Assembly (NCBI GenBank): GCA_028716845.1
Contig: JAQUPF010000001.1
Coordinates: 216,167-280,166, forward strand
Length of the DNA: 64,000 nt
Origin: a bacterium
GTDB taxonomy: Bacteria > Auribacterota > Tritonobacteria > UBA1439
Direction: 5' to 3'
The position numbers were made by a program, and so were the translations under genes. Shown one piece after another: positions 1 to 62,106 of the stretch. Each line of letters begins with the position of its first letter. Position 1 is the stretch's first letter. The notes below the pieces were generated by a model. That model did no database searches, had not been told where the DNA came from, and saw only the letters and a program-made list of their open reading frames with translations.

Positions 1-1086
1 GTCGAAGAGGACGACGGCGTAGGGGGCCCCGTACCGGGCGAACCGCCTGTATTGGGCGTCGAGCTCCATGTCCGCGAACCGCCTGTTCCGCACGCCGGTG
101 AGCGCGTCGGTCACCGAGAGCCGCGCGAGCTCGCGCCGGGCCTGGACGATCTGCTGGTAGAGGATCGAGAAGAGGTAGATGCCCGTGCAGGAGAGGAAGC
201 CGATGATCGCGAGGAGGATGTCCTGCGCCCGCCGGTTGAAGCGGAGGCGGTCAAGGAGCGTCGAGGCGAGGCCCCAGGCCCGCGACTCCTCGAGCAGGTC
301 GATGTGGCGCTCGGCGCCGAAGCCGATGGCGACGGCCACGAGAATGGGCATGACGAGCGAGGCGATGAGGGCGACGGTGATCCGCTCGATCGAATCGCCG
401 GCGGCGGGGACGAGGTATTCGCGCGCCCCCTTCCACGCGGCGACCCGGCGGCCCGTCAAGCGGAGGACGGGGCCGACGATGACGATGAAGTAGAGGACGT
501 TGTTCAGGACCCACCCCTCCCAGAGGGGGAAGAACTCGCTCGCCTCGCCGCCGCCGCGGAGCGCCCAGAGGAATGCGGCCGACGAGGAGGCGGAGGCCCC
601 GAGGAGGACGCAGCCCGCGAAGACGCGCATGCTCCGGCCGTCGGAGAGGTCCGGCTCGATCCGGAAGGCCGACACGAGCGTGTGGATGACGAAGAGGCCG
701 ACGGGGTTGGCGAGCGCGAAGACGAGGGCGAGCGGGATCGACATGCCGGCGTCGTACGAGACGAGGAGGGTGCTCGCATAGGCGACCAGCACGCCCCACG
801 GGAGGCCGAGCCAGAAGGTGAGGATGCCGCTGATGATGATCGGGGGGTAGAAGGTGAAATAGATCGGCATCCCCCGCATCTCGAGGATCTTCACCGCGTC
901 GAGGCCGAGCCGCCGGGAGGCGACGCCGAGGAGGGAGGCGACGCAGACGGCGGCGAGCAGCGTCCAGCCCAGCACGCGCCGGTCGCGCGGAGGGACGCGC
1001 GGGGAGAAGAGGAGGCGGAGCGGGATGGGCCTGAGCCGGTCCGCCCAGGGCTCCTCCAAGACCGCCATCAGGTGCCGCGGCGTCAT
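1..1086 (-). CDS. Membrane-anchored diguanylate cyclase (GGDEF), C-terminus beyond window start
   Basis: Hand translation of minus strand from ATG at 1086: hydrophobic N-terminal segments, then RRELARLSVTDALTGVRNRRFADMELDAQYRRFARYGAPYAVVLFD at the window edge (typical start of a GGDEF domain). Absent from ORF track because no stop lies in the window. Confidence 0.6.
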   Translation of the reverse strand, partial: MTPRHLMAVLEEPWADRLRPIPLRLLFSPRVPPRDRRVLGWTLLAAVCVASLLGVASRRLGLDAVKILEMRGMPIYFTFYPPIIISGILTFWLGLPWGVLVAYASTLLVSYDAGMSIPLALVFALANPVGLFVIHTLVSAFRIEPDLSDGRSMRVFAGCVLLGASASSSAAFLWALRGGGEASEFFPLWEGWVLNNVLYFIVIVGPVLRLTGRRVAAWKGAREYLVPAAGDSIERITVALIASLVMPILVAVAIGFGAERHIDLLEESRAWGLASTLLDRLRFNRRAQDILLAIIGFLSCTGIYLFSILYQQIVQARRELARLSVTDALTGVRNRRFADMELDAQYRRFARYGAPYAVVLFD

Positions 1087-1223
1087 CTGCCTCTTTCCTT
1101 TGAATATAGTTTACACGATATATACCGCCGCTTCAAATCGGGCGCCCCGGAAACGGGTGAAAATCCGCAACGCGGGGCGCGCGTTAATTGTTATGATGAT
1201 TGCTCAAACATCGGGGGCCGGCG

Positions 1224-1763
1224 ATGGGGATCAACCTCGGGCGGCTCGTCCGCGGGGACAAGGCGGCGTGGGACGCGTTCGTCGAGCGCTTCTCGCCGGT
1301 CATCTACGCGGGGGTCAGCCGGACGCTCTTTGCCCGCTCCTCGCGCGCGACGGAGGAGGACGTGCGCGACCTCGCGCAGTCGGTCTTCATCCGCCTCCTG
1401 AAGGACGACTGCCGGCTGCTGCGGCGGTACGACCCGTCGAGGGCCTCGCTCGTGACGTGGCTCACCATCGTCTCGCGGAGCGCCGCCCTCGACTTCCTCC
1501 GCAGGAAGACCCTCTCCACGGTCCCGCTCGACGGCGAGGCGCTCCAGGTCAGCGACGGGAAGGCGGCCCGGCCGGTCCTCCCGCTCTCGATACCGGAGGG
1601 ACTCCTCTCGCCGCGCCAGGCCCTCGTCCTGCACCTCCTCTTCGATCGGGACATGGCGGTCGAGGAGGCCGCGGGGCTCCTGGGCGTGGAACCGCAGACC
1701 GTCCGGAGCATCAACCACAAGGCGCTCACGAAGCTCCGCGCCTTTTTCAGGGAGCCGACGTGA
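1224..1763 (+). CDS. ECF-type RNA polymerase sigma factor (sigma-70 regions 2 and 4)
   Basis: Track ORF 1200..1763; ATG at 1224 gives MGINLGRLVRGDKAAWDAFVERFSPVIYAG... with C-terminal helix-turn-helix (QTVRSINHKALTKLR); size about 180 aa. Confidence 0.8.
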   Translation: MGINLGRLVRGDKAAWDAFVERFSPVIYAGVSRTLFARSSRATEEDVRDLAQSVFIRLLKDDCRLLRRYDPSRASLVTWLTIVSRSAALDFLRRKTLSTVPLDGEALQVSDGKAARPVLPLSIPEGLLSPRQALVLHLLFDRDMAVEEAAGLLGVEPQTVRSINHKALTKLRAFFREPT

Positions 1764-31855: not shown

Positions 31856-32308
31856 TTACTCCTTCACCTCGATCCTGATCTTCTTCTCCTTCGCCTCCTC
31901 CGCCTTCGGGAGCCGCACCTCGAGGACGCCGCCCTTGTACGAGGCCTTCACCTTGCCCTGGTCGACGGGGAAGGGGAGCTCGAGGCAGCGCTGGAACGAG
32001 CCGTAGTAGCGCTCGCAGCGGTAGAAGTCCTTCTCCTTCACCTCGGACTCCTGCTTCCTCTCCCCCCGGAGCGTGAGCGTGTTGCCCTGGATGGAGATGT
32101 CGACATCCTCCTCCTTCATCCCGGGGAGATCGGCCTTCACCACGATCGACTCCTTGTCCTCGTAGATGTCGAGGGCCGGACTCCACACGACGGCGCCCGG
32201 ATCGCCGAACAGTCGCCCGACCGAGGTGTCGAATACCCTGCTCAAGTCACCGGGGAGGTCGGCGAACGGACTCCACACATCGCGCGGTCTCCAACGTATC
32301 AGCGCCAT
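31856..32308 (-). CDS. Small heat-shock protein, Hsp20/alpha-crystallin family
   Basis: Track ORF 31856..32410; ATG 32308 with AAGGAGG RBS; alpha-crystallin domain (VKADLPGMKEEDVDISIQGNTLTLRGER...GVLEVRLPK). Confidence 0.85.
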   Translation of the reverse strand: MALIRWRPRDVWSPFADLPGDLSRVFDTSVGRLFGDPGAVVWSPALDIYEDKESIVVKADLPGMKEEDVDISIQGNTLTLRGERKQESEVKEKDFYRCERYYGSFQRCLELPFPVDQGKVKASYKGGVLEVRLPKAEEAKEKKIRIEVKE

Positions 32309-32350: not shown

Positions 32351-32365
32351 GCATTTCCCGTGCCA
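32351..32365 (-). promoter_or_regulatory. Candidate sigma-54 (-24/-12) promoter for hsp20
   Basis: Minus-strand TGGCACGGGAAATGC (GG and GC separated by 10 nt, as in consensus TGGCACG-N4-TTGC); GC element about 45 nt upstream of the ATG. Confidence 0.45.
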
Positions 32366-38932: not shown

Positions 38933-38965
38933 GTCGCTCGCGGGGCGCGGGCGTTCGCGACGCCC

Positions 38966-39898
38966 TCACCCGCCCTCCTCTCCGCAGAGGTGCAGGAGCT
39001 CGCTCCATCGCCGGTCCACGCCCGCCTGGATCTCCTCGACGACCTTCGCGTTCTCCGGCTTCGTCAGGTGCGCGAAGCGCTTCTGCGTCCCGAACCACTC
39101 GGTGATCGGGGCCTTCCGCTTCGGCTTGTAGTTGAGGCGCCAGGCCCCGTCCTCGACCTCGAAGAGCGGCCAGTGGCACGTCTCGACGGCCGTCTTGCAG
39201 ACGTCGAGCGAGGTGTGCATCGGGACGCGCCATCCGCGGTGGCAGGAGGAGATGACGTTGATGAACTTCGGCCCCCGGATCCGGAGCGCCTTCCGCACCT
39301 TCTCCATGAGGTCCATCCAGCGGTGCGGCGAGGCCTGGGCCGCGTAGGGGATGCCGTGGGCGACCATGATCTTCGTCAGGTCCTTCGCGTACTGCCGCTT
39401 GCCGATCGACTCCTTCCCCACGGGCGAGGTGGAGGTGGCGGCGCACATCGGCGTGGAGCCCGACCGCTGGATCCCCGTGTTCATGTACGCCTCGTTGTTG
39501 TAGCAGACGTAGAGAAAGTCGTGGCCGCGCTCCATCGCCCCGGAGAGCGCCTGGAGGCCGATGTCGTACGTGCCGCCGTCCCCGCCGAAGGCGATGAACC
39601 TGATCTCCCGGTCGATCCTCCCCTGCTTCCGGAGGGCGCGGTAGGCGGTCTCGATCCCGCTCATCGTCGCGGCGGAGTTCTCGAAGGCATTGTGCATGAA
39701 GGGGACGCGCCAGGCCGTGTACGGGTAGATGGTCGTGACGACCTCCATGCAGCCCGTGGCGCAGGTGCACACCACCGGCTCCTCGGCGGCCATCAGGACG
39801 AGCTTGATGGCGATGATGCTGCCGCAGCCGGCGCAGGCCCGGTGGCCCGGGCTCAGCGGCACCGGCTTCTTCGAGAGCTCCTTCAGATTGATCGCCAT
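38966..39898 (-). CDS. porB: Pyruvate/2-oxoacid:ferredoxin oxidoreductase, beta subunit (TPP-binding)
   Basis: Part of track ORF 38966..40051; ATG 39898 (MAINLKELSK); CAGCGS and GGDGG TPP-binding motifs. Confidence 0.85.
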   Translation of the reverse strand: MAINLKELSKKPVPLSPGHRACAGCGSIIAIKLVLMAAEEPVVCTCATGCMEVVTTIYPYTAWRVPFMHNAFENSAATMSGIETAYRALRKQGRIDREIRFIAFGGDGGTYDIGLQALSGAMERGHDFLYVCYNNEAYMNTGIQRSGSTPMCAATSTSPVGKESIGKRQYAKDLTKIMVAHGIPYAAQASPHRWMDLMEKVRKALRIRGPKFINVISSCHRGWRVPMHTSLDVCKTAVETCHWPLFEVEDGAWRLNYKPKRKAPITEWFGTQKRFAHLTKPENAKVVEEIQAGVDRRWSELLHLCGEEGG

Positions 39899-46519: not shown

Positions 46520-47017
46520 CTACCGTTCGTCGACGGTGATCCTGTCGATGAAATCGAGGCTCCCGAGCGACCGCTGGCACGCCTCCACCATCCACGGATC
46601 GTCGGTGCCGGCGAGAGACCGGAGGAGCGGTTTGATCGCGGCCGGGTCGCCGATCCTGCCGAGGGCCCGGGCGGCGCTCCGCCGCGTGCCGCCGTTCGGA
46701 TCGTTGAGCGCCCTGACGAGGGGCTCGACGGCGCGCCGGTCGCCGATCGCGCCGAGCGCCTCCGCCGCCCGCTCCCGCACGCCGCCGCTCGAATCGCCGC
46801 GGAGGGCGTCGATGAGCGGCGGGACCGCCGCCTCTCCCATGCCGCCCAGCATCTTCGCCGCGTTCTTGCGGTCGGCATCCCTGCCGGTCCTGAGGAACGA
46901 GACGAGCGAATCGAAGGTGACGGCGGCGGCCCCGTCATCCGCCGGCGACGCGACGGGCCGCGCCGCGGAGGCGGCGACGAGGATCGCCGCGAAGACCGCG
47001 CGTCTTCCGATTCCCAT
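46520..47017 (-). CDS. Secreted HEAT-repeat (PBS-lyase-like) protein
   Basis: Track ORF; signal peptide; repeated VRERAAEALGAIGDRRAVEPL / TRRSAARALGRIGDPAAIKPL units; GGAGGGAG RBS and TATAAT box just upstream. Confidence 0.6.
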   Translation of the reverse strand: MGIGRRAVFAAILVAASAARPVASPADDGAAAVTFDSLVSFLRTGRDADRKNAAKMLGGMGEAAVPPLIDALRGDSSGGVRERAAEALGAIGDRRAVEPLVRALNDPNGGTRRSAARALGRIGDPAAIKPLLRSLAGTDDPWMVEACQRSLGSLDFIDRITVDER

Positions 47018-47080
47018 GTGGATCTCCCTCCGGGAGGAATTATAGCACGCCGGCCCGCGCCCGTCACACGATGTCCCCGG

Positions 47081-47400
47081 CCCGCGACCGACCGCCCTTC
47101 CCTGAAGACACGACGCGCCAAGCCACCGCCGCCTATATCAAGCACCAATCAACCACGGATTGGCACGGATCCAAACGACAGTGGAAAGTTGAAGGCATAA
47201 CGCCGAACGTAAAGTCGTTTCCGCCGCGGATGAACGTGAACAGCAGCTCGCTCTTTTCGCCACGGAGATCACAGAGAACAACTCCAGTGCGAAGTTGAAC
47301 GTTCAAAGTCGAAAGCAGCACTATCCTCTGCGTTCTCTGTGTCCTCTGTGGCCGGTTGTATCTGCGTCAATCCGCGGCAAGGCAGTTCATTTCATCGACG
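47081..47400. repeat. Mosaic intergenic repeat element, copy d (begins with 90-bp direct repeat DR1)
   Basis: DR1 47081..47170 is about 91% identical to 47918..48007; module X reverse at about 47291..47380. Confidence 0.7.
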
Positions 47401-53435: not shown

Positions 53436-54980
53436 GTGCGGAAGATGAAACAGGCCAGGCTGCTCCTCGTCCTCCTCGCGGCGGCGCTCGTCGCGCTGTC
53501 GGGCTGCGCGACCCGCGGGCCGGCGCTCTGCGTCCTCCACACGAACGACCTCCACGGCCACATCGCCCCCGCCCGCGTCCCCGGCTGGCGGGAGCGGCGG
53601 GGCGGGGCGGCGGTCCTCGCCGGGTGCGCGCGGGAGATCCGCGCCGAGAACGAGCGCGCGGGCGTTCCGACGCTCCTCCTCGACGCGGGCGACATCTTCA
53701 TGGGGGCCCCCGAGGGGACCATGTCGCGCGGCAGGGCGGTCGTCGAGACGATGAACGCCGCGGGCTACGACGCCATGGCCGTCGGCAACCACGAGTTCGA
53801 CCACGGCGTCGGCGTCCTCGAGGATCTCGCCGCGGCGGCGGCCTTCCCGATCCTCGGCGCGAACGTCCGCGGCCCGGACGGGGGCGTCCCGCCGTTCCTC
53901 GCGCCGCACGTCGTCGTGCGCTTCGACGATATCTCCGTCGGCCTCGCCGGCGTCATCACGGCGCAGACGCCCGCCATCGTGATGCCGGGGAGGGTCGGGG
54001 CGATCGAGTTCGGGGACCCCGCGGAGGCCGCGCGGCGCGCCGTGGCCGAGCTCGAGCGGGAGGGGGTCTCGTTCATCATCCTCATCAGCCACTGCGGCGT
54101 CTCCGAGGACGTCCGGATCGCCCGGGAGGTCGACGGGATCGGCCTCATCGTCGGCGGCCACAGTCACGATCTCCTCGAGCGGCCGCTCAGGGCGGGCCGC
54201 GCGGGAACGCTCATCGTCCAGGCGGGGGATTCCGGCCGCCACCTCGGCCGGCTCGACCTCAGGATCGATCCGCGGCGCCGGCGCGCCCGCCGGCACCGGT
54301 ACGGCCTCATCCCGATCACGGAGGACCGCTGCCCGCCCGACCCGGAGGCGGCGGCGGTCGTCGAGAAGTGGCGCGCGCGCGCGCGGGAGGAGTTCGGCGA
54401 GGCGGTCGGCGTCTCGCTCGACGATTTCGAGGGCGGCGGCGAGACCGAATCGGAACTCGGCAACATGATCGCCGACGGGATGCGCGAGACCGCCCGCGCC
54501 GAGATCGCCTTCCACAACGCATACGGCATCCGGAACCCCCTCCTCGCGGGCCCCGTCACGGTCGCCGACATCTACGCCATCATGCCGTTCGACAACACGA
54601 TCCACACGATGCGGCTTCAGGGGCGGCAGGTCCGGCGGGTCCTCGAGCAGAGCCTCGGCCTCCGGGACGGCCTCCTCCAGGTCTCCGGCCTCACGGTCGT
54701 CTACGATCCGGGGGCGCCCGCCGGGGGGAGGGTGCGCTCGGCGGAGTGCGGCGGCGGGCCGCTCGACGACAACCGGCTCTACACGGTGGCGACGAACTCC
54801 TACCTCGCCGCCGGGGGGGACAACTTCACCGTCTTCGCGGAGGGGCTCGATCCCGTCGACACCGGGATCCTCGACCGGGACTCCTTCGCCGCGTACATCC
54901 GCTCCCGGTCCCCGGTCGGGCCCTCCGCCGGGGGACCGGCGCGGCTCATTCCGCGTCCGGGCCCGTCAGCCGCTCCCTGA
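53436..54980 (+). CDS. Bifunctional metallophosphatase/5'-nucleotidase (UshA-like) lipoprotein
   Basis: Track ORF; lipobox LSGC; LHTNDLHGH and GNHEFD metallophosphatase motifs. Confidence 0.8.
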   Translation: MRKMKQARLLLVLLAAALVALSGCATRGPALCVLHTNDLHGHIAPARVPGWRERRGGAAVLAGCAREIRAENERAGVPTLLLDAGDIFMGAPEGTMSRGRAVVETMNAAGYDAMAVGNHEFDHGVGVLEDLAAAAAFPILGANVRGPDGGVPPFLAPHVVVRFDDISVGLAGVITAQTPAIVMPGRVGAIEFGDPAEAARRAVAELEREGVSFIILISHCGVSEDVRIAREVDGIGLIVGGHSHDLLERPLRAGRAGTLIVQAGDSGRHLGRLDLRIDPRRRRARRHRYGLIPITEDRCPPDPEAAAVVEKWRARAREEFGEAVGVSLDDFEGGGETESELGNMIADGMRETARAEIAFHNAYGIRNPLLAGPVTVADIYAIMPFDNTIHTMRLQGRQVRRVLEQSLGLRDGLLQVSGLTVVYDPGAPAGGRVRSAECGGGPLDDNRLYTVATNSYLAAGGDNFTVFAEGLDPVDTGILDRDSFAAYIRSRSPVGPSAGGPARLIPRPGPSAAP

Positions 54981-56691
54981 ACGGCCTCCGCCGCCCGGGG
55001 GGAACAGTCCGCGTCGGCGCGGGAGGCGAGGGCTCCAGGGCCGTGGCGGGGCTTTCCGTCGGGGCCGGCTCGGGCGTCTCCGTCGGGGCCGGCTCGGGCG
55101 TCTCCGTCGGGGCGGGCGTCGGCGTTCCCGTCGGGGTCGGCGGAGGCGGCGTGCGCCGGAGCTCCGGCTCGCCGATCGCCGCCATGAGATCGGAGCCGCG
55201 GATGAAGGGCGGGAGCGGCCCCGCGTTTCCCATGGCGATGCCGAGCGTCTGTCCGGCCGCGGCGCTGCCGTGCGTCCCCTTCAGGTCGATCGCCCCCGTG
55301 AAGAACGCGCTCCCCGAACAGTAGCCGTCGAGGAGGCTCACGAAGACGTCCGGCACGTTGACGACGTGATTGTGCACCGCCTCGTGGAGCCGCCGCAGGA
55401 CGTCCGGGTAGACGTGCCCCTCCAGCGCCTCGAACCAGGAGGCGTCGTCCGCGAACCCCTCGTCGTCCATCTCCCCGCGCCCCCGCATCGCCTCGATGAT
55501 CGGACCGAGGGCGAGCGGGTCCCCCTCCTCGATGGCGCAGGCATACCGGTCCCCGCGGGCGGAGATCCTCGCACTGCCGCGGGCGCCGATGACGACCGCC
55601 TCGCCTCCCTCCTCGAAGACGGCGAAGTCCGCCCCCTCGAGCGTCGCGAGCGCCTCCGCGAGCGGCCGCCTGTTCCGCGGATCGGCGTAGAGGACGGCGG
55701 CGCCGACGAGGCCGAATCGGGGCGCGACGGCGTCCCGCCCGTCGCGGATGGAGCCGGCGAGAATGAAGCCGTGCCGCGCGAGGTGGCCGTCGAGATCGAC
55801 CAGGCGGCCGCTCGGGACGAAGTTGTTGCCGTGGTCGGAGAAGAGGCTCACACGGATGTCCCCCTCCGTCGCGTGGAGGATCTCGTTCAGCATCTCCTCG
55901 AGCCGGAGGAGCTGGCGGCGCATCCCCTCCCGCCCCTCCCGGTGGCCGATCGCGTCGGTCGAGCCGATGTAGAGGAAGATCGGCTCGTCCGCGGGCCGCT
56001 CACGGTGGAGGCGCCAGAATGTCCTCCGCGCCGCCCGGAGATCGCGGTCGGCGACCATGTACGGGGCGACGTAGATGAGGGCGCCGAAGCGGGGGTGCTG
56101 CTCGTAGTCGAAGGCCGAGTGGAAGGTCCGGTCCGTCCGGGGGTTCGGCCGCACCAGGTGGTCCCGCGCCCCGCCGGTGACCCTGTTGCGGCGCCGGTCG
56201 AAGTAGCGGTTCTCGATGCCCGGCGTCTTCGCCGTCCCGAGGATCTCGGCGAAGGCGGGGTTGGTGTCGGAGGGGAAGGTGGAGATGAGGCGCGACGGGG
56301 GGTTGAAATCCCTGAAGCGGCCCTCCCGCCAGAGCTCCTCCATGAGGGCATGCGGCACCGAGTCGACGCAGATGATGAGGTGCCGCGCGGCGGCGCGCGC
56401 CCGTTCCGCGCGGGAGATGCGCGCGTCGAAGGAGCCGTCGGAATCCCTGTCGACGTGGTAGACGTCGACGACCCCGTCGCCGTCCGTGTCCAGCTTCCGC
56501 CAGTCGGCCCTCCCGTCGCCGTTCGTGTCGTAATCCCATCCCTCGACGGCGACGCCGTGGAATCCCTCCCCCCTGAACCTCGCCGGCTGCGGGAAGACCC
56601 ACCGCGCCCCCGCGGCGGAGGGAAGCGCCGCGAGGAAGAGGAGGGCGGCGGCCGTCCGCCGCGTCCCCGTGCCGATGAAACCGCGCATCAT
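54946..56691 (-). CDS. Secreted alkaline-phosphatase-superfamily protein (phosphodiesterase/sulfatase-like) with Thr/Pro-rich C-terminal tail
   Basis: Track ORF 581 aa; signal peptide; Ca-binding-like DTNGDGRAD / DTDGDGVVD loops; SDHGNNF motif; C-terminal TPTPAPTETPEPAPTETPEPAPT. Confidence 0.5.
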   Translation of the reverse strand: MMRGFIGTGTRRTAAALLFLAALPSAAGARWVFPQPARFRGEGFHGVAVEGWDYDTNGDGRADWRKLDTDGDGVVDVYHVDRDSDGSFDARISRAERARAAARHLIICVDSVPHALMEELWREGRFRDFNPPSRLISTFPSDTNPAFAEILGTAKTPGIENRYFDRRRNRVTGGARDHLVRPNPRTDRTFHSAFDYEQHPRFGALIYVAPYMVADRDLRAARRTFWRLHRERPADEPIFLYIGSTDAIGHREGREGMRRQLLRLEEMLNEILHATEGDIRVSLFSDHGNNFVPSGRLVDLDGHLARHGFILAGSIRDGRDAVAPRFGLVGAAVLYADPRNRRPLAEALATLEGADFAVFEEGGEAVVIGARGSARISARGDRYACAIEEGDPLALGPIIEAMRGRGEMDDEGFADDASWFEALEGHVYPDVLRRLHEAVHNHVVNVPDVFVSLLDGYCSGSAFFTGAIDLKGTHGSAAAGQTLGIAMGNAGPLPPFIRGSDLMAAIGEPELRRTPPPPTPTGTPTPAPTETPEPAPTETPEPAPTESPATALEPSPPAPTRTVPPGRRRPFRERLTGPDAE

Positions 56692-56703: not shown

Positions 56704-58212
56704 CTACCGGAGCCCGAGGTCCCGCATCATCCGCGAGAGGTACGGCTGCGTGAGCGCGAGCTTCCGCGCCGCGCGCGACTGGTTCCCGCCGCACTCGCGG
56801 AGGGCCCGGGCGACGATCTCCCGCTTGAAATCCTTCACCAGCTCCCTGTACGGCTTCGTGAGCGCGATCTCCGCCGCCGGCGCGGGGGCGAGGTCGAGGA
56901 GGAGGTTGTCCCTGTCGATCGTCTCCTTCGCGCCGAGGACGATCGCCCGCTCGAGCACGTTCTCGAGCTCCCGCACGTTCCCCGGCCAGTTGTAGCCGAG
57001 GATCGCCTTCTGCGCCGCGGGGGTGAGGGCCGGCGCCGGCCGCCCCTCCTCGAGGCAGTAGCGCTCGATGAACTTGTTCGCGATGTAGAGGATGTCCTCC
57101 TCCCGCTCCCTGAGCGGCGGGATGGTCAGGGAGATGACGTTGATCCTGAAGTAGAGATCCTCCCTGAAGGCGCCGCCCGCGACCTCCTCCTTGAGGTCCC
57201 TGTTCGTCGCGGCGATGACGCGGATGTCGGCCGTGATCGTCCCCGTCCCCCCCACCCGCTCGAACTGGCGCTCCTGGAGGACGCGGAGGAACTTCGTCTG
57301 GACGTCGGGCTCCATCTCCCCGATCTCGTCGAGGAAGAGGGTGCCGCCGTCGGCGAGCTCCACTTTCCCCTCCCTCCTGCGGACCGCCCCCGTGAAGGCG
57401 CCCTTCTCGTGGCCGAACAGCTCGCTCTCGAGGAGCTGCTCGGGCAGGGCCGCGCAGTTGATCGCGACGAACGGCCGCTTGCTCCGGTCGCTCCACGTGT
57501 GGATCGACCGGGCGACGATCTCCTTCCCCGTCCCGCTCTCGCCGAGCAGGAGGACCGTGGCGTCGCTCTCCGCCGCCCGCCGCGCCATTTCGATGACCGC
57601 CTTCATCTTCGGGGAATAGCTGGTGAGGAGGCGCGGGGCGGCGTCGAGCTGCTCCCGGAGGAGCTTGTTCTCCCTCGACATCGCGTCGTAGAGGTTCGCA
57701 TTGTCGATGGCGATCGCCACCTGGTCGGCGAACGCGCGGGCGAGGTGCAGGTCGTCGTCGGTGAAACGGCCCCCCTCCGGCTTGTTGATGATGTTGAGGA
57801 CGCCGAGCACCTTCCCGCCCGAGGCGAGCGGGAGACAGAGGATCGACTCGAGCGGCGTGTCGATGATGTGGTTGTAGCGGTCCGAGTACCGCGGATCGCT
57901 CCGGACATTGTTCGAGAGGACCGGCTCACCGTGCTTCGCCACCCATCCGGCGATCCCCTCCCCGATCTTGAACTTCACCTCCCGCATCTTGTCCTTGTTC
58001 GGTCCCACCACGATGCAGGCGACGAGTTCCTTCGTCTCCGGGTGGAGGAGCATGAGGCACGAATCCTTGCAGTCCACGACCTTCGCGGCCGAGCAGACGA
58101 TCGATTCCAGCAGCTTCTCCTTGTCCCGCGTCGAGGAGACCTCCTGCGACGCCTGGAGGAGCGAGAACAACCTGCCGATGATATACTCCCTTTTCCCCGT
58201 CTCCACTGCCAT
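56704..58212 (-). CDS. Sigma-54-dependent transcriptional activator with N-terminal GAF domain (no receiver domain)
   Basis: Track ORF 502 aa; Walker [15 protein letters not shown] motif, C-terminal HTH ([20 protein letters not shown]). Confidence 0.85.
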
Positions 58213-58514
58213 GGCTGGTCTTCGCCTTTCTCCGCGTGGACGCCGTGATGTGCGTCCTTCTTTTTACCTTTCGATCCTTAAAAAGCCGTCATGTTATCCG
58301 AATGATATCCTCAAGTCAATATGCATAATAGATATAATCATGGCATCGTTCGACTATTAACAAAACATATATCTCATTGGTTATATCATATCATCACAAA
58401 GTTATAGACACATTTTCATTTAAGAGGTATACATCGCAGGAAGTTCTATCCGCACTAAGTCACAATACACACTACAAGAGGATATTATGACATTATAATG
58501 GATATATTTCATAG

Positions 58515-58529
58515 TGGCACATAATATGC
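58515..58529 (+). promoter_or_regulatory. Candidate sigma-54 (-24/-12) promoter inside the AT-rich divergent region
   Basis: TGGCACATAATATGC, same GG-N10-GC spacing as consensus; about 55 nt upstream of ATG 58584. Confidence 0.5.
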
Positions 58530-58583
58530 TTATATAAACGAACAGGCACACAAAATGTGCATGCAGAGGAAAGGAGATTGAAA

Positions 58584-58883
58584 ATGATGGCAACAAGATT
58601 CCTCAGGACACTCGCGGCCGTCGTCGCGGCCGCCGCGGTGCTGGCTTCGACGGTCGACGCCGCCGGGAAGGTGAACATCAACACCGCCTCCCGGTGGAGG
58701 CTCGAGAAGCTGCCGGGGGTCGGTCCGGACATCGCGCAGCTGATCATCGCCTACAGGAGGGATTCAGGCGGGTTCAGGAGTGTCTCCGAGCTCGGCCAGA
58801 TACCCGGCATCGGCGGAAAGAAGCTTGAGGGTCTCAAGCGCGTCGCCACCGTCGGCCGGCTCGCGGAGCGCGACCGTCTCTGA
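58584..58883 (+). CDS. ComEA-like secreted helix-hairpin-helix DNA-binding protein
   Basis: Part of track ORF 58557..58883; ATG 58584 with AGGAGA RBS; signal peptide; INTASRWRLEKLPGVGPDIAQLIIAYRRDSGGFRSVSELGQIPGIGGKKLEGL. Confidence 0.7.
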   Translation: MMATRFLRTLAAVVAAAAVLASTVDAAGKVNINTASRWRLEKLPGVGPDIAQLIIAYRRDSGGFRSVSELGQIPGIGGKKLEGLKRVATVGRLAERDRL

Positions 58884-58902
58884 CGGGCGCTGGAGCGGAA
58901 CG

Positions 58903-58936
58903 GGCGGTTCGCCGACGGCGAGCCGCCATTTTTTTT
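58903..58936 (+). terminator. Rho-independent terminator after the ComEA-like gene
   Basis: GGCGGTTCGCC-GACG-GCGAGCCGCC hairpin followed by A and eight T residues. Confidence 0.75.
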
Positions 58937-59115
58937 GCGCGGGCCGGTCCGCGAAAAGCGGCCACCTGTCCACGGCGCCGATGATGTTGCCGTCGACCTT
59001 CAGGACGGCCGGCCCCGACCGCCCTTTCGCGTTGGGCGCGTCGATGATCGGCCGCGAGGGAAAGCCGCGGCGTTCATCGGCGCCCGGCGACGTGTTTCAT
59101 GTTATATTGATTCTC

Positions 59116-62106
59116 GTGAACGTGCGCGCGTGGCATCCCAGCTTGAAGACGATCGTCGCCGCGGCCGCCTCCCTCGCCGCGCTGCAGCCCCTGCCGGGCG
59201 CCGCCGGTCCCGACGAGGGGCCGGACGCCGGTTCCGAGCTCGCGCTCCATTCCCGGGTCATCCGGCCGGGTCCGGCCGACCTCGAGGGGCTCCGCGCCGC
59301 CGCCGCGCGCGCGCACGGGAGATCGCGGATCCACGCCCTCATCCGACTCGACGGGATCCCTTCGCCGGCACGCCGGGCGGCGCTCAGCCGGGAAGGGCTC
59401 TTCCTCCTCTCCTACGTGCCCGACCGCGCCTGGCTCGCCTCGCTCCCCTCGGACGACATCGGCCGTATCGTCGCCCTGCCCGGCGTTCGATGGGCGGGGC
59501 CGCTCGATCCGGCCGACAAGATCAGCCCGATCCTCCGGCGGGGCGGGTTCGGCGGATGGGCGCACGACGGGTCGTCGGGCCGCTGCGTCGTCCTCGTCAC
59601 GCTGTTCCGGGACGTCGGCCTCGAGGAGGGGGAGGAGGCCGTCCGCTCGCTCGGGGGGAGGGTCACGGGGGAGGCGGGTCTCGTCCACACGCTCGTTGCG
59701 GAGATCCCCGTCGCGGCGGTCGAGGCCCTCGCCGCCCATGACATCGTCGAGTGGATCGAGCAGCCGCTCCCGCCGCTCGAGCCGGTCAACGCCGGGAACA
59801 GGGCGGTCGTCGGCGCGGACACGCTCCAGGCCGCGCCGTACAACCTCGCGGGGAGCGGCGTGAACGTCCTCGTCTACGACGCCGGACGGGTGTACGGCCA
59901 CAGCGACCTGGTCGCTCGGATGACGGAGGGCGACTCCTCGCCGTTCCATGAGCACGCCACGCACGTCGCCTGCACGGTCTGCGGCGACGGCACGGTGACG
60001 TTTAACAACCGCGGGATGGCGCCGGCCGCCAATCTCCTCTCGATGGGGTTCGAGTACGACGGGAGCGGCGTCTTCCTCTACACGAACCCGGGCGACATCG
60101 AGGACGATTTCACCTACGCGAAGAACGCCTGGCCCCCCTCCGCCGACCTCCTCAACGCCTCCATCGGGACGAACACGGCCTGGAACGGTTTCCCGTGCTC
60201 CTACGAGGGGAACTACGGCGTCACCGACATCCTCCTCGACTCGATCGTGCGCGGATCGCTCGGGGAGCCGTTCATCATGGCGTGGGCCGCGGGGAACGAG
60301 CGGGGAGACGGCAGGTGCGGCTCATCGTACCGCACAACCGCGCCGCCGGCGTGCGCGAAGAACCCGATCCAGTCCGGGGCGACGAACGAATCCGACGGGA
60401 TGTCCTCCTTCTCGTCATGGGGGCCGACGGACGACGGGCGGATCAAGCCGGTCGTCTGCGCGCCGGGCGTGAACGTCCTCTCGTGCAATCAATCCAACGG
60501 CTACAGGACAATGAGCGGGACATCGATGGCCTCGCCGACGACCGCCGGCGTCATCGCCCTCATGCTCGAGCAGTACCGGATCACGTACGGGACCGCCGTC
60601 GCCTTCCTCCCCTCGTCGGCGAAGGCGCTCCTCATCCACACGGCGGCGGACCTCGGCCCGGCGGGGCCCGATTTCCGCTTCGGCTACGGCCGGATCGACG
60701 CCGTGGCGGCGGCGGACCGGATCATCGCGCGCGACCTCCGCGAGGAGCCGGCCACCGTCCACGACGAGACCCGTGACTACGCGGTGACGGTCGCGCCCGG
60801 GACGCCCGAACTCAGGGCGAGCCTCGCCTGGGACGACCCGCCGGGGACGCTCATGGCGGTGCGGAAGCTCGTCAACGACCTCGACCTCGAGCTGGTTGCC
60901 CCGGGCGGCGCCGTCCACCGCCCCTGGGTCCTCGATCCCGCGAATCCGTCGGACACCGCGACGACGGGCGCGGACAATCTCAACAACCAGGAGCAGGTCG
61001 TCGTGAGCGGCCCCGCCGCCGGCGTCTGGACGGTCCGCGTCCGCGCCTCAGCCCTCCCGGAGCCGCCGCAGGCGTACTCGATCGTCTTCCCCGGGGCGGC
61101 CGACATCGCTCCCGCCGTGACGCCCGGGGCCACGCCCACGCCGACGCCGACGCCGAAGGTGTGCTACGAGGCCGTGACGAACGGCGGCTTCGAGTCGGGC
61201 TCGGATCCCTGGGTCCTGACCGGCTCGGCGGTCCGGAGCGCCCAGCAGGCGCGGTCGGGCTCGTACTCGATGCGGCTCGGGGGCCCGGGCAACGGCAGGA
61301 TGCATCTCGAGGTCGGCGTCCCGCCGTCGGCCGCAGGCGCCACGCTCTCCTACTGGGTCCGGATGCAGACGGCGGAGACCGACCCCGATCCGGACGACTT
61401 CCTGGATGTGGAGATCCACGACGGCGCCGGGAGGACGCTCACGACGCTCCAGTCGCTCTCCGACCGCGATCCGTCCTACAAGGACGCGTGGCGGCAGGAG
61501 TCGTTCACCCTCGGGTCGGACCTCGCGGGAAGAACGATCCGGCTGCATTTCCAGGCGCTGGTGAACAACACCATGGCCACCTATTTCTTCATCGATGACG
61601 TGGGCCTCGAGATCTGCGGATCCGAGCTGCCGCCGACGCCCGCGCCGACGCCGACGCCCGCGCCCAACTACATCAACCTGTCGCTCTCCCCGGTACAGCT
61701 CCGGCCGGGCGGGGCGGTGGAACTCTCCTGGCGCTGCGACTTCAGCCGCTGGGACTACGCGGGCCGGCCGGTGGACGTGTACCTCGCGGCGATCAGGGAC
61801 CCGAAGGCGGCGGGGGCCTCGTCGAGCATCGGGGACGCGCTCGCGGGCGGCGAGGTCCGGCTCTTCGAGGACGGGATGCGGACGTCGTACCGTTTCACCG
61901 GCGCGGTGCGGGCGCCGTGCTGGCGGGGCGTGGTATTCCCGCCGACACCGCTCGCGGGGACGCTCCGGTTCACGGTGCCGCCCGACCCGTCGTTCCACGG
62001 CGACTGGGTGTTCGCGACGGCGTTCTTCCTGAAGGATCCGCCGGGGCCGGTCCGCGACGACGGCCTCCCCGTGGAGAACTCCGACATCGCGACGGTCGCC
62101 CCGTAG
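59116..62106 (+). CDS. Secreted subtilisin-like serine protease (peptidase S8) with propeptide and large C-terminal extension
   Basis: Part of track ORF 58780..62106; start uncertain (candidates between 59044 and 59143); catalytic triad contexts VLVYDAG, HATHVACT, SGTSMASP; Thr/Pro linkers; C-terminal beta-rich domains. Confidence 0.8.
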   Translation: MNVRAWHPSLKTIVAAAASLAALQPLPGAAGPDEGPDAGSELALHSRVIRPGPADLEGLRAAAARAHGRSRIHALIRLDGIPSPARRAALSREGLFLLSYVPDRAWLASLPSDDIGRIVALPGVRWAGPLDPADKISPILRRGGFGGWAHDGSSGRCVVLVTLFRDVGLEEGEEAVRSLGGRVTGEAGLVHTLVAEIPVAAVEALAAHDIVEWIEQPLPPLEPVNAGNRAVVGADTLQAAPYNLAGSGVNVLVYDAGRVYGHSDLVARMTEGDSSPFHEHATHVACTVCGDGTVTFNNRGMAPAANLLSMGFEYDGSGVFLYTNPGDIEDDFTYAKNAWPPSADLLNASIGTNTAWNGFPCSYEGNYGVTDILLDSIVRGSLGEPFIMAWAAGNERGDGRCGSSYRTTAPPACAKNPIQSGATNESDGMSSFSSWGPTDDGRIKPVVCAPGVNVLSCNQSNGYRTMSGTSMASPTTAGVIALMLEQYRITYGTAVAFLPSSAKALLIHTAADLGPAGPDFRFGYGRIDAVAAADRIIARDLREEPATVHDETRDYAVTVAPGTPELRASLAWDDPPGTLMAVRKLVNDLDLELVAPGGAVHRPWVLDPANPSDTATTGADNLNNQEQVVVSGPAAGVWTVRVRASALPEPPQAYSIVFPGAADIAPAVTPGATPTPTPTPKVCYEAVTNGGFESGSDPWVLTGSAVRSAQQARSGSYSMRLGGPGNGRMHLEVGVPPSAAGATLSYWVRMQTAETDPDPDDFLDVEIHDGAGRTLTTLQSLSDRDPSYKDAWRQESFTLGSDLAGRTIRLHFQALVNNTMATYFFIDDVGLEICGSELPPTPAPTPTPAPNYINLSLSPVQLRPGGAVELSWRCDFSRWDYAGRPVDVYLAAIRDPKAAGASSSIGDALAGGEVRLFEDGMRTSYRFTGAVRAPCWRGVVFPPTPLAGTLRFTVPPDPSFHGDWVFATAFFLKDPPGPVRDDGLPVENSDIATVAP

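Follow-up and report, generated by a model that had tools for sequence, protein, structure and literature searches.

We analysed a 64,000-nucleotide stretch of contig JAQUPF010000001.1 (assembly GCA_028716845.1), hereafter the window, from a bacterium of the Auribacterota, and within it the AT-rich intergenic gap at positions 58213–58583, which separates a gene for a GAF-domain sigma-54 activator from a divergently transcribed gene for a small, ComEA-like protein. We consider it likely that the region forms a local sigma-54 switch, in which the GAF activator turns on the exported ComEA-type protein. The sequence elements on which this proposal is built are conserved, the −24/−12 box of the ComEA-like gene in nine loci, the dyads upstream of it in most of them, and a promoter of the activator gene in seven. 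A first-pass annotation had described the region as a self-contained divergent sigma-54 unit, and this description is supported by the nine loci in which the pair occurs, by the conserved −24/−12 element, and by the complete absence of the pairing from the loci of activator paralogues (0 of 160).

The central element is a predicted sigma-54 promoter on the forward strand, TGGCACATAATATGCT at 58515–58530, with GG at 58516–58517 as the −24 and GC at 58528–58529 as the −12 element. Its core, TGGCACATAATATGC at 58515–58529, has the exact GG-N10-GC spacing claimed in the first-pass annotation and lies 69 nt upstream of the ATG, and the predicted transcription start falls near 58541. The pattern TGGCACN5WTGC has two matches in the window (both strands), compared with 0.05 expected from dinucleotide shuffles. 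The −24/−12 element is kept in all nine orthologous loci, 60–83 nt upstream of the ATG and in the form [TC]GGCA[CT]-N5-nTGC in every gap, and some of the orthologous copies, for example TGGCACGGTGGTTGCT and TGGCACGGTTGTTGCG, are nearer to the consensus than that of the window. Sigma-54 promoter scoring, proposed earlier as a check, was run with a matrix derived from the other eight loci only, and no site on either strand of the window scored higher than this one, which reached 23.2 bits versus 15.7 bits for the next. The other match to TGGCACN5WTGC, TGGCACGGGAAATGCT at 32351–32365 on the reverse strand, ranks third with the same matrix and is located about 45 nt upstream of an Hsp20/alpha-crystallin gene (31856–32305, reverse strand), which carries its own ribosome-binding site (AAAGGAGG). 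With this second good promoter in front of the Hsp20 gene, sigma-54 appears to serve more than a single promoter in the organism.

Transcription of the ComEA-like gene by the sigma-70 holoenzyme from the AT-rich tract, with TGGCAC-N5-ATGC being fortuitous or vestigial, has also to be considered, given that seven sigma-70-like sites are found in 58000–59200, several of them on the forward strand just upstream of the sigma-54 element (ATGACA-17-CATAGT at 58487–58515; TATAAT at 58491–58496), and that AT-rich DNA yields such sites easily. We judge this to be very improbable, since the GG and GC are invariant in the nine loci amid diverging surroundings, no forward-strand sigma-70-like motif is conserved in position between the upstream dyads and the −24 box, and the chance expectation of the sigma-54 pattern is as low as 0.05 per window.

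The nine loci (window included; the others are designated by L numbers) were obtained by exact-sequence look-ups, which for the proteins of the window itself returned no recorded contig, and in all of them the divergent ComEA-like/activator pair is kept across a gap of about 300–400 nt, at a background GC content of 51 to 70%. The activator orthologues, 20 in total, form a sharply bounded group with 67–79% identity to the activator, the next best sequences reaching at most 47%, and one of them is labelled Candidatus Aureabacteria, that is, phylum Candidatus Auribacterota of the Planctomycetes–Verrucomicrobia–Chlamydiae (PVC) group. A tblastn search with the ComEA-like protein was run against all fetched loci, the paralogue loci serving as negative control for the pairing, and only the orthologous loci were matched; because the ComEA-like gene is absent from all 160 paralogue loci, the pairing is specific to the orthologue group. 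Scans of genome and metagenome contigs with the activator or its GAF alignment returned paralogues only and were of use solely as this negative control. The genome matches were partial, beginning at about residue 127 and covering mainly the AAA+ and C-terminal part, with at most 58% identity, and the metagenome matches lay in the GAF domain, with at most 41% identity.

The activator gene (56704–58212, reverse strand) encodes a bacterial enhancer-binding protein of 502 amino acids with GAF, AAA+, AAA lid and Fis-type helix-turn-helix (HTH) domains, as the first-pass annotation had read it. Pfam recognises Sigma54_activat (PF00158; 245 bits, E 3e-73), GAF (78 bits) and AAA_lid_14 (76 bits), and the HTH_8 match at residues 461–487 is borderline (22.0 bits for a cut-off of 22). 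The translation contains the Walker motif sequences GESGTGKE and DEIGEM, and the GAFTGA at about 57402 is the only one in the window. The GAFTGA loop, which contacts sigma-54, defines functional sigma-54 activators (PMC3162934). With GAFTGA, AAA+ and HTH together, the protein is, as judged from its translation, a complete enhancer-binding protein. Its identification as NifA was rejected, given that the TIGR01817 score of 422.2 bits is below the cut-off of 528.85 and that none of the nine gaps contains TGT-N10-ACA, the upstream activating sequence of NifA; nif genes were not seen among the scanned window proteins.

Activator sites upstream of the promoter were searched for, as the first-pass annotation had proposed, and two AT-rich candidate dyads were found at 58368–58406. 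The distal dyad, TATATC-TCATTG-GTTATA (58368–58385), matches TATAWC-N6-GWTATA exactly and is centred about 165 nt before the predicted start, and the proximal dyad, TATCAT-CACAAA-GTTATA (58389–58406), has two mismatches to the pattern. The dyad starts are 21 bp apart, that is, two helical turns, and on the same face of the helix, and their centres at about −165 and −144 relative to 58541 fall in the usual range for enhancer-binding proteins. Among the orthologous loci, the motif TATAWC-N5-7-GWTATA occurs in two position classes, about 121–126 and about 134–147 nt upstream of the −24 box, the window's proximal-class copy being at 126 nt. Dyads of the 134–147 nt class, as measured to the −24 TGG, are present in seven of the nine loci, and both classes in six, with L001, L175 and L177 showing one. 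At the distal dyad, A157/T158, A171/T172 and A178/T179 of the gap alignment (seven loci) are invariant. An unsupervised Gibbs search of the sequence upstream of the −24 box, to which no positional information was supplied, gave the 18-mer TATnCnnAnnnGnTATAA at 116–127 nt upstream of the −24 TGG in eight of nine loci. Seven dyads with at most one mismatch were observed, compared with 0.64 in dinucleotide shuffles of the same AT-rich sequences, a test that is partly circular since the dyad pattern was defined from these very sequences. We propose that the dyads are probably the binding sites of the activator, i.e., its upstream activating sequence. Elsewhere in the window, a dyad-like sequence, TATAGTTTACACGATATA at 1105–1122 (two mismatches), is not accompanied by a sigma-54 element and probably arose by chance; it sits in a short divergent gap upstream of a gene for an extracytoplasmic function (ECF)-type sigma factor (1200–1763, forward strand).

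The promoter might instead respond to a different enhancer-binding protein, the gene of which lies elsewhere, with the GAF activator controlling other genes and being a mere neighbour. Activators acting at a distance exist in this genome, as indicated by the Hsp20 sigma-54 promoter, near which no activator gene was found (there is only one GAFTGA protein in the window), and the link between activator and dyads is drawn from sequence. This explanation nevertheless seems unlikely to us, given that the divergent pairing is kept in nine loci of widely different GC content and is restricted to the orthologue group, that the conserved dyads are at the distance expected of a local upstream activating sequence, and that the pair stays together while its neighbours beyond the ComEA-like gene differ between loci.

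A number of observations weigh against a local switch operated by the GAF activator. The −12 region of the window's promoter reads ATGC, not TTGC, the RpoN box is absent from the 64-kb window, with the presence of sigma-54 in the genome being assumed, and the positional conservation over the nine loci partly reflects shared ancestry. In addition, TATA-rich near-palindromes arise easily in DNA of 33% GC, and the information of the Gibbs motif, 14.55, is barely higher than that of shuffles (13.85 ± 0.29, maximum 14.49); positional agreement is the stronger argument for this motif than information content, because the latter exceeds the shuffles only slightly. A site for the DNA-bending protein IHF (WATCAANNNNTTR, at most one mismatch) was not found at a consistent place in any of the loci. 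In a motif search of the interval from the dyads to the −24 box, information content was within or slightly above the shuffle range and positions were scattered, and TAACAyGyTGGTGG in this interval is common to L005, L169 and L172 only. Looping through flexible AT-rich DNA, without a bending protein, is an assumption of the model. The model as a whole is deduced from sequence, and it is on this basis that we infer the sigma-54 dependence, the protein bound to the dyads, the looping and the transcription starts.

The composition of the gap is a further feature of the unit. The window has 69.6% GC and the gap 36.9%, or 36.8% when counted through 58584, and within the gap the stretch 58260–58580, which the first-pass annotation had singled out as AT-rich, has 33.3%, with 30% in the poorest 200-nt window. 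The gap is 7 standard deviations (SD) under the mean of the other 200-nt windows (0.697 ± 0.055; their minimum 48%). A gene call based on GC content at third codon positions (GC3) delimited 28 intergenic regions with a length of 60 nt or more, of which the gap has the lowest GC content (next 45.6%, median about 64%). That the AT-rich tract might be a generic intergenic feature of this genome, a possibility raised earlier, is therefore not borne out. In each of the seven loci measured, GC content likewise reached its lowest point in the gap, with 200-nt minima of 29–36% GC versus a background of 53–70%. Because the gap stays at 29–36% GC whether the surroundings have 53% or 70%, this argues for selection on composition or on AT-rich motifs, and against a recent foreign origin. 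The aligned gaps of the seven loci share an overall identity of only 49%, and the invariant columns are mainly at the −24 GGCA, the −12 TG, the ribosome-binding site, and a block about 140 nt further upstream.

That the tract is not mainly regulatory, being a foreign or mobile remnant or encoding a small RNA or a small protein, could be proposed from its composition 7 SD away from the genome, from an open reading frame of 58 amino acids at 58420–58596 on the reverse strand, and from a gene of 56 amino acids called within the gap in L176. We find this highly improbable. The tract lies at the same place between the same genes in every locus measured, which speaks against recent acquisition, and conservation is mainly confined to short promoter and operator blocks. 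Moreover, Rfam gave zero matches in 58258–58583 even at E values up to 10 and none window-wide at gathering scores, repeats typical of mobile elements were not found, and no conserved reading frame is apparent in the seven-locus gap alignment. Separately, several activator-bearing metagenome contigs end in or near the gap. Those of L173 and L174 reach only 166 and 111 nt, respectively, upstream of the activator start, and contig L171 begins within the activator gene (positions 1–4), which suggests that the AT-rich tract is a frequent assembly break point.

On the opposite strand of the gap, a promoter scan identified a sigma-70-type promoter at 58291–58319, composed of TTGACT (58319–58314), a spacer of 17 nt and TAACAT (58296–58291), which is predicted to drive the activator gene, with a transcript start near 58284 and a leader of about 70 nt. 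The pattern TTGAC[TAG]-16..18-TAnnnT occurs on the activator strand in seven of the nine orthologous gaps, mostly with TATAAT or TAATAT as −10 box. The gap thus contains two promoters that point away from each other over a distance of about 257 bp and flank the dyads. A terminator-like scan detected a GC-rich hairpin, GGACGC...GCGTCC with a 6-pair stem (58238–58257, reverse strand), in the predicted leader of the activator mRNA; GC-rich hairpins were seen by eye in the orthologous gaps of L005, L172 and L179, that of L172 lying upstream of the −35 box. In the 5' untranslated region of the ComEA-like gene, the inverted repeat GCACA-CAAAA-TGTGC that the first-pass annotation had pointed out is present at 58546–58560 (forward strand). 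As a hairpin, it is weak (−6.2 kcal/mol, z = −0.63, with 59 of 200 shuffles folding as well or better) and unconserved, RNAalifold, applied to the 5' untranslated regions of all nine loci, giving no consensus pair, and it is probably of no consequence. The ribosome-binding site, AAAGGAGA at 58570–58577 (forward strand), and the start codon, within ATGATG at 58584–58589, stand as first read. AAGGAG is invariant in the seven aligned gaps (A359–G364) and precedes the ATG in eight of the nine loci, L179 having AGGAGG.

Based on these elements, we propose the following scheme for the switch. The activator gene would be transcribed from its own sigma-70-type promoter (58319–58291), probably together with the gene downstream of it, which encodes an NPP-like enzyme, and dimers of the activator would bind the two dyads through the Fis-type HTH on the same face of the helix. 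Sigma-54 RNA polymerase would meanwhile wait as a closed complex on TGGCAC-N5-ATGC (58515–58529). Upon reception of a signal by the GAF domain, the AAA+ domains would form an active ring, and the very AT-rich and presumably flexible DNA of about 110 bp between dyads and promoter would loop, allowing the ring to touch sigma-54 via GAFTGA, and ATP hydrolysis would then lead to promoter opening. The product would be a short monocistronic mRNA, from about 58541 to a terminator at 58903–58936, for an exported ComEA-type DNA-binding protein of the helix-hairpin-helix (HhH) kind.

The ComEA-like gene is located at 58584–58883 on the forward strand and encodes 99 amino acids from 58584, or 98 from 58587 in the NCBI annotation. 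The earlier designation as ComEA-like holds, the protein having a single HHH_3 domain (PF12836; 65.6 bits, cut-off 27) after its signal-peptide-like N-terminal segment and passing TIGR00426, the ComEA helix-hairpin-helix region (54.8 versus 53.1). The cut-off of the full-length comE model TIGR01259 was not reached (65.2 versus 152.35 bits), with only the C-terminal HhH part being matched. Matches in the PDB are the HhH repeats of EEPD1 and ComEA (8dss/8dfk). The nine orthologues are 45–60% identical and have an invariant core, NINTAS..L..LPG.G. By eye, the N-terminus has a basic start followed by the hydrophobic AAVVAAAAVLA and then VDA-AG, with an equivalent in all nine orthologues, and the protein is presumably exported and would bind DNA outside the cytoplasm. 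An intrinsic terminator at 58903–58936 (forward strand) consists of an 11-pair stem (58903–58927) with nine G-C pairs and a T8 run, and the ComEA-like gene is therefore predicted to be monocistronic. A full-text literature search returned no report of a sigma-54-dependent comEA.

The surroundings of the ComEA-like gene vary between loci. PMT_2 genes adjoin it in L001, L169, L172 and L177, and the ComEA-like protein of L001 (6022–6504) has an extra C-terminal extension of about 60 amino acids that is lacking in the other eight orthologues. In the window, the terminator is followed by a gene for an S8 subtilase of about 1000 amino acids with a choice-of-anchor J domain (about 59116–62106, forward strand), a window-specific neighbour that is absent beside the ComEA-like gene in the other loci.

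Regarding the input of the switch, the signal of the GAF domain was left as unknown in the first-pass annotation, and both sequence and fold matches now provide a lead towards cyclic nucleotides. Residues 1–200 of the activator, compared with PDB sequences by phmmer, matched PDE5 (3.7e-19) and, over the whole domain, Lcd1 (2.8e-18), followed by PDE2A, PDE10A and CyaB2, whereas the GAF domains of solved activators matched far worse (Nlh1 6e-9, NifA 7e-4). A structural model of the GAF domain built from 78 sequences (predicted local distance difference test, pLDDT, of 87) had as best Foldseek match the PDB entry 5W10, Lcd1 with cyclic AMP (cAMP), at an E value of 2.2e-13 and a template modelling (TM) score of 0.83 normalised by target length; the next matches were an HD-GYP GAF and then PDE5, PDE2, PDE10, PDE6 and CyaB2, with Nlh2 at rank 28. 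The entry 5W10 has been described as Lcd1 (PMC11800159), the GAF domain of which binds cAMP (PMC8846402), and the NKFDE motif is said to distinguish cyclic-nucleotide GAF domains (PMC11977230). In an alignment to PDE5, residues N143, K144, F150 and D154 of the activator align with the N, K, F and D of this motif, and the four occur together in 20 of 20 orthologues versus 2 of 100 paralogues.

Against such a signal, it has to be noted that the final E of NKFDE is L155 in the activator and that many similarly folded GAF domains bind other ligands. We therefore put forward a cyclic nucleotide such as cAMP or cyclic GMP (cGMP) as a tentative proposal for the signal, one that the sequence and model comparisons make possible. 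A cyclase gene was not found among the scanned window proteins. A metal or redox site formed by Cys48 and Cys52 (CxxxC) was considered and dropped, as the paralogues have A/V and S/A at these positions; both cysteines are invariant in the orthologues covering the position and specific to the orthologue group, and they are probably small buried residues. To our knowledge, a cyclic-nucleotide-sensing GAF domain on an enhancer-binding protein has not been described.

On the activator side, and as far as the contigs extend, the gene order is conserved and consists of the activator, an exported protein of about 600 amino acids, a convergent 5'-nucleotidase, PALP and a Cys/Met-metabolism enzyme. PALP followed by the Cys/Met gene is found in the window, L166, L169, L171 and L173; the contig of L001 breaks off inside PALP, and a DUF362 gene takes this place in L175. 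In the window, the exported protein is an NPP-type enzyme of the alkaline phosphatase superfamily (54946–56691, reverse strand), encoded 12 nt downstream of the activator gene, with which it is probably co-transcribed; we treat it as context of the switch. It matches Pfam Phosphodiest with 25.7 bits (cut-off 23), and its same-position orthologues are 46–59% identical. Across 41 homologues, D110, D286, H287 and H474 are invariant and D246 and H250 nearly so, and position 143, within an FPSxT motif, is T or S in all 41. As is known for the NPP family, we take D110, D246, H250, D286, H287 and H474 to be metal ligands and position 143 to be the nucleophile. The model of the protein has a pLDDT of 87, and its best folds in the PDB are ENPP6, ENPP1/3/5, Xanthomonas NPP and phosphonoacetate hydrolase. 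Near its N-terminus, it carries thrombospondin-type Asp-rich repeats (DTNGDGRADW..DTDGDGVVD), and its tail at residues 520–581 is disordered and rich in Pro, Thr and Glu, with a pLDDT below 50. The UshA-like 5'-nucleotidase (53436–54980, forward strand) has a lipoprotein-type signal (LSGC) and is convergent with the NPP-like gene, the 3' ends of both overlapping by 35 nt (54946–54980). The NCBIfam UshA/5'-nucleotidase families match this gene, all below their equivalog cut-offs, and the orthologous 5'-nucleotidase genes, which encode Metallophos and 5_nucleotid_C domains, are 52–58% identical.

These neighbours offer a role for the ComEA-like protein other than competence, namely the capture of extracellular or periplasmic DNA for nutrients together with the NPP-like enzyme and the 5'-nucleotidase, which we regard as conceivable, if doubtful. 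The capture and breakdown of extracellular DNA is suggested because the three exported proteins would bind DNA, cut phosphodiesters and dephosphorylate nucleotides, respectively. All three have signal-peptide-like N-termini, the NPP-like gene is adjacent to the activator gene and encodes an intact two-metal site, and the 5'-nucleotidase is a conserved neighbour. Furthermore, comEC, pilQ and pilin families or other pilus genes were not found in a Pfam scan covering 48 of the 51 provisional gene calls of the window. On the other hand, the conserved block also holds the PALP and Cys/Met genes, which are unrelated to DNA, and the synteny may be an inherited order; the NPP-like gene is missing in L173 and L174, the best folds of the NPP-like protein include a choline phosphodiesterase and the phosphonoacetate hydrolase, and competence genes may lie outside the window. 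A combined scheme, in which a cAMP- or cGMP-sensing GAF activator switches on a periplasmic DNA receptor, maybe coupled to DNA breakdown by the NPP-like enzyme and the 5'-nucleotidase, is rather speculative and less probable than either the signal or the scavenging role taken by itself.

Further away from the gap, the window contains a large envelope-glycosylation cluster on the reverse strand (6779–27561), with three PMT_2 glycosyltransferases, three GT2 and a GT1, a DegT aminotransferase, an epimerase/dehydratase, a nucleotidyl transferase, a hexapeptide acyltransferase and a methyltransferase. Two stretches at 38933–39728 and 46596–47355 (796 and 760 nt long, at about 68% GC) are devoid of GC3-called genes and of Rfam matches, and may hold missed genes.

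The layout of the proposed unit is that of a textbook, well-understood bacterial switch. The NifA, NorR-norVW, FhlA and Aquifex Nlh1/Nlh2 units have the same domain order with GAFTGA in their activators, and such units likewise have a divergent activator beside the presumed target and dyads more than 100 bp upstream of GG-N10-GC. In the NCBIfam ranking of the activator, NifA is best and NorR third, both below their cut-offs (422 versus 528.85 and 360 versus 476, respectively). In contrast to these units, the dyad here is an AT-rich TATAWC/GWTATA, the target is one small exported HhH protein and not nif, nor or hyc, and the GAF domain is nearer to cyclic-nucleotide GAF domains than to those of the solved activators. 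The GAF domains of Lcd1 (5W10), of PDE5, PDE2A and PDE10A, and of CyaB2 are the closest in sequence and fold in the PDB, and N143, K144, F150 and D154 align with the N, K, F and D of the NKFDE motif; unlike in these cyclic-nucleotide GAF proteins, the output here is a sigma-54 AAA+ domain and not a cyclase, phosphodiesterase or GGDEF domain, with L155 in place of E.

As to the target, ComEA of Vibrio cholerae and ComE of Neisseria are periplasmic DNA receptors, the genes of which are under cAMP-CRP/Sxy-TfoX control. The protein described here likewise has about 100 amino acids, a signal-like N-terminus and one HhH domain, but it stays below the TIGR01259 cut-off, lies in a window in which no other competence genes were found, and would be under the control of sigma-54 and not of CRP-S sites. 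The PilR/PilS system controls type IV pilin genes together with sigma-54 in Pseudomonas, Myxococcus and Geobacter. There, too, a sigma-54 promoter and an upstream activating sequence drive a single abundant exported protein of DNA uptake or the cell surface, whereas here the sensor is a cytoplasmic GAF domain and not a two-component receiver, and the target is an HhH protein and not a pilin. Such a target fits the idea of sigma-54 as a regulator of the cell exterior (PMC3162934). What is unusual about the unit is its target gene, the cyclic-nucleotide-type GAF domain on a sigma-54 activator, and a gap of near 30–35% GC in genomes of up to 70%.

Overall, these results provide an uncultured lineage related to Candidatus Auribacterota with a dissected and tractable regulatory unit, consisting of a promoter, candidate dyads, an activator and one output gene. 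The persistence of the gap at about 30–35% GC in genomes of 53% or 70% GC offers a clean case of a regulatory region that resists compositional drift. The GAF domain yields a concrete and cheap hypothesis, the binding of cAMP or cGMP, which, if confirmed, would add a cyclic-nucleotide input to sigma-54 activators and link it to the handling of extracellular DNA. If the combined scheme were true, the unit would represent a counterpart, built on sigma-54, of the cAMP-CRP/Sxy system that controls comEA in the Gammaproteobacteria.

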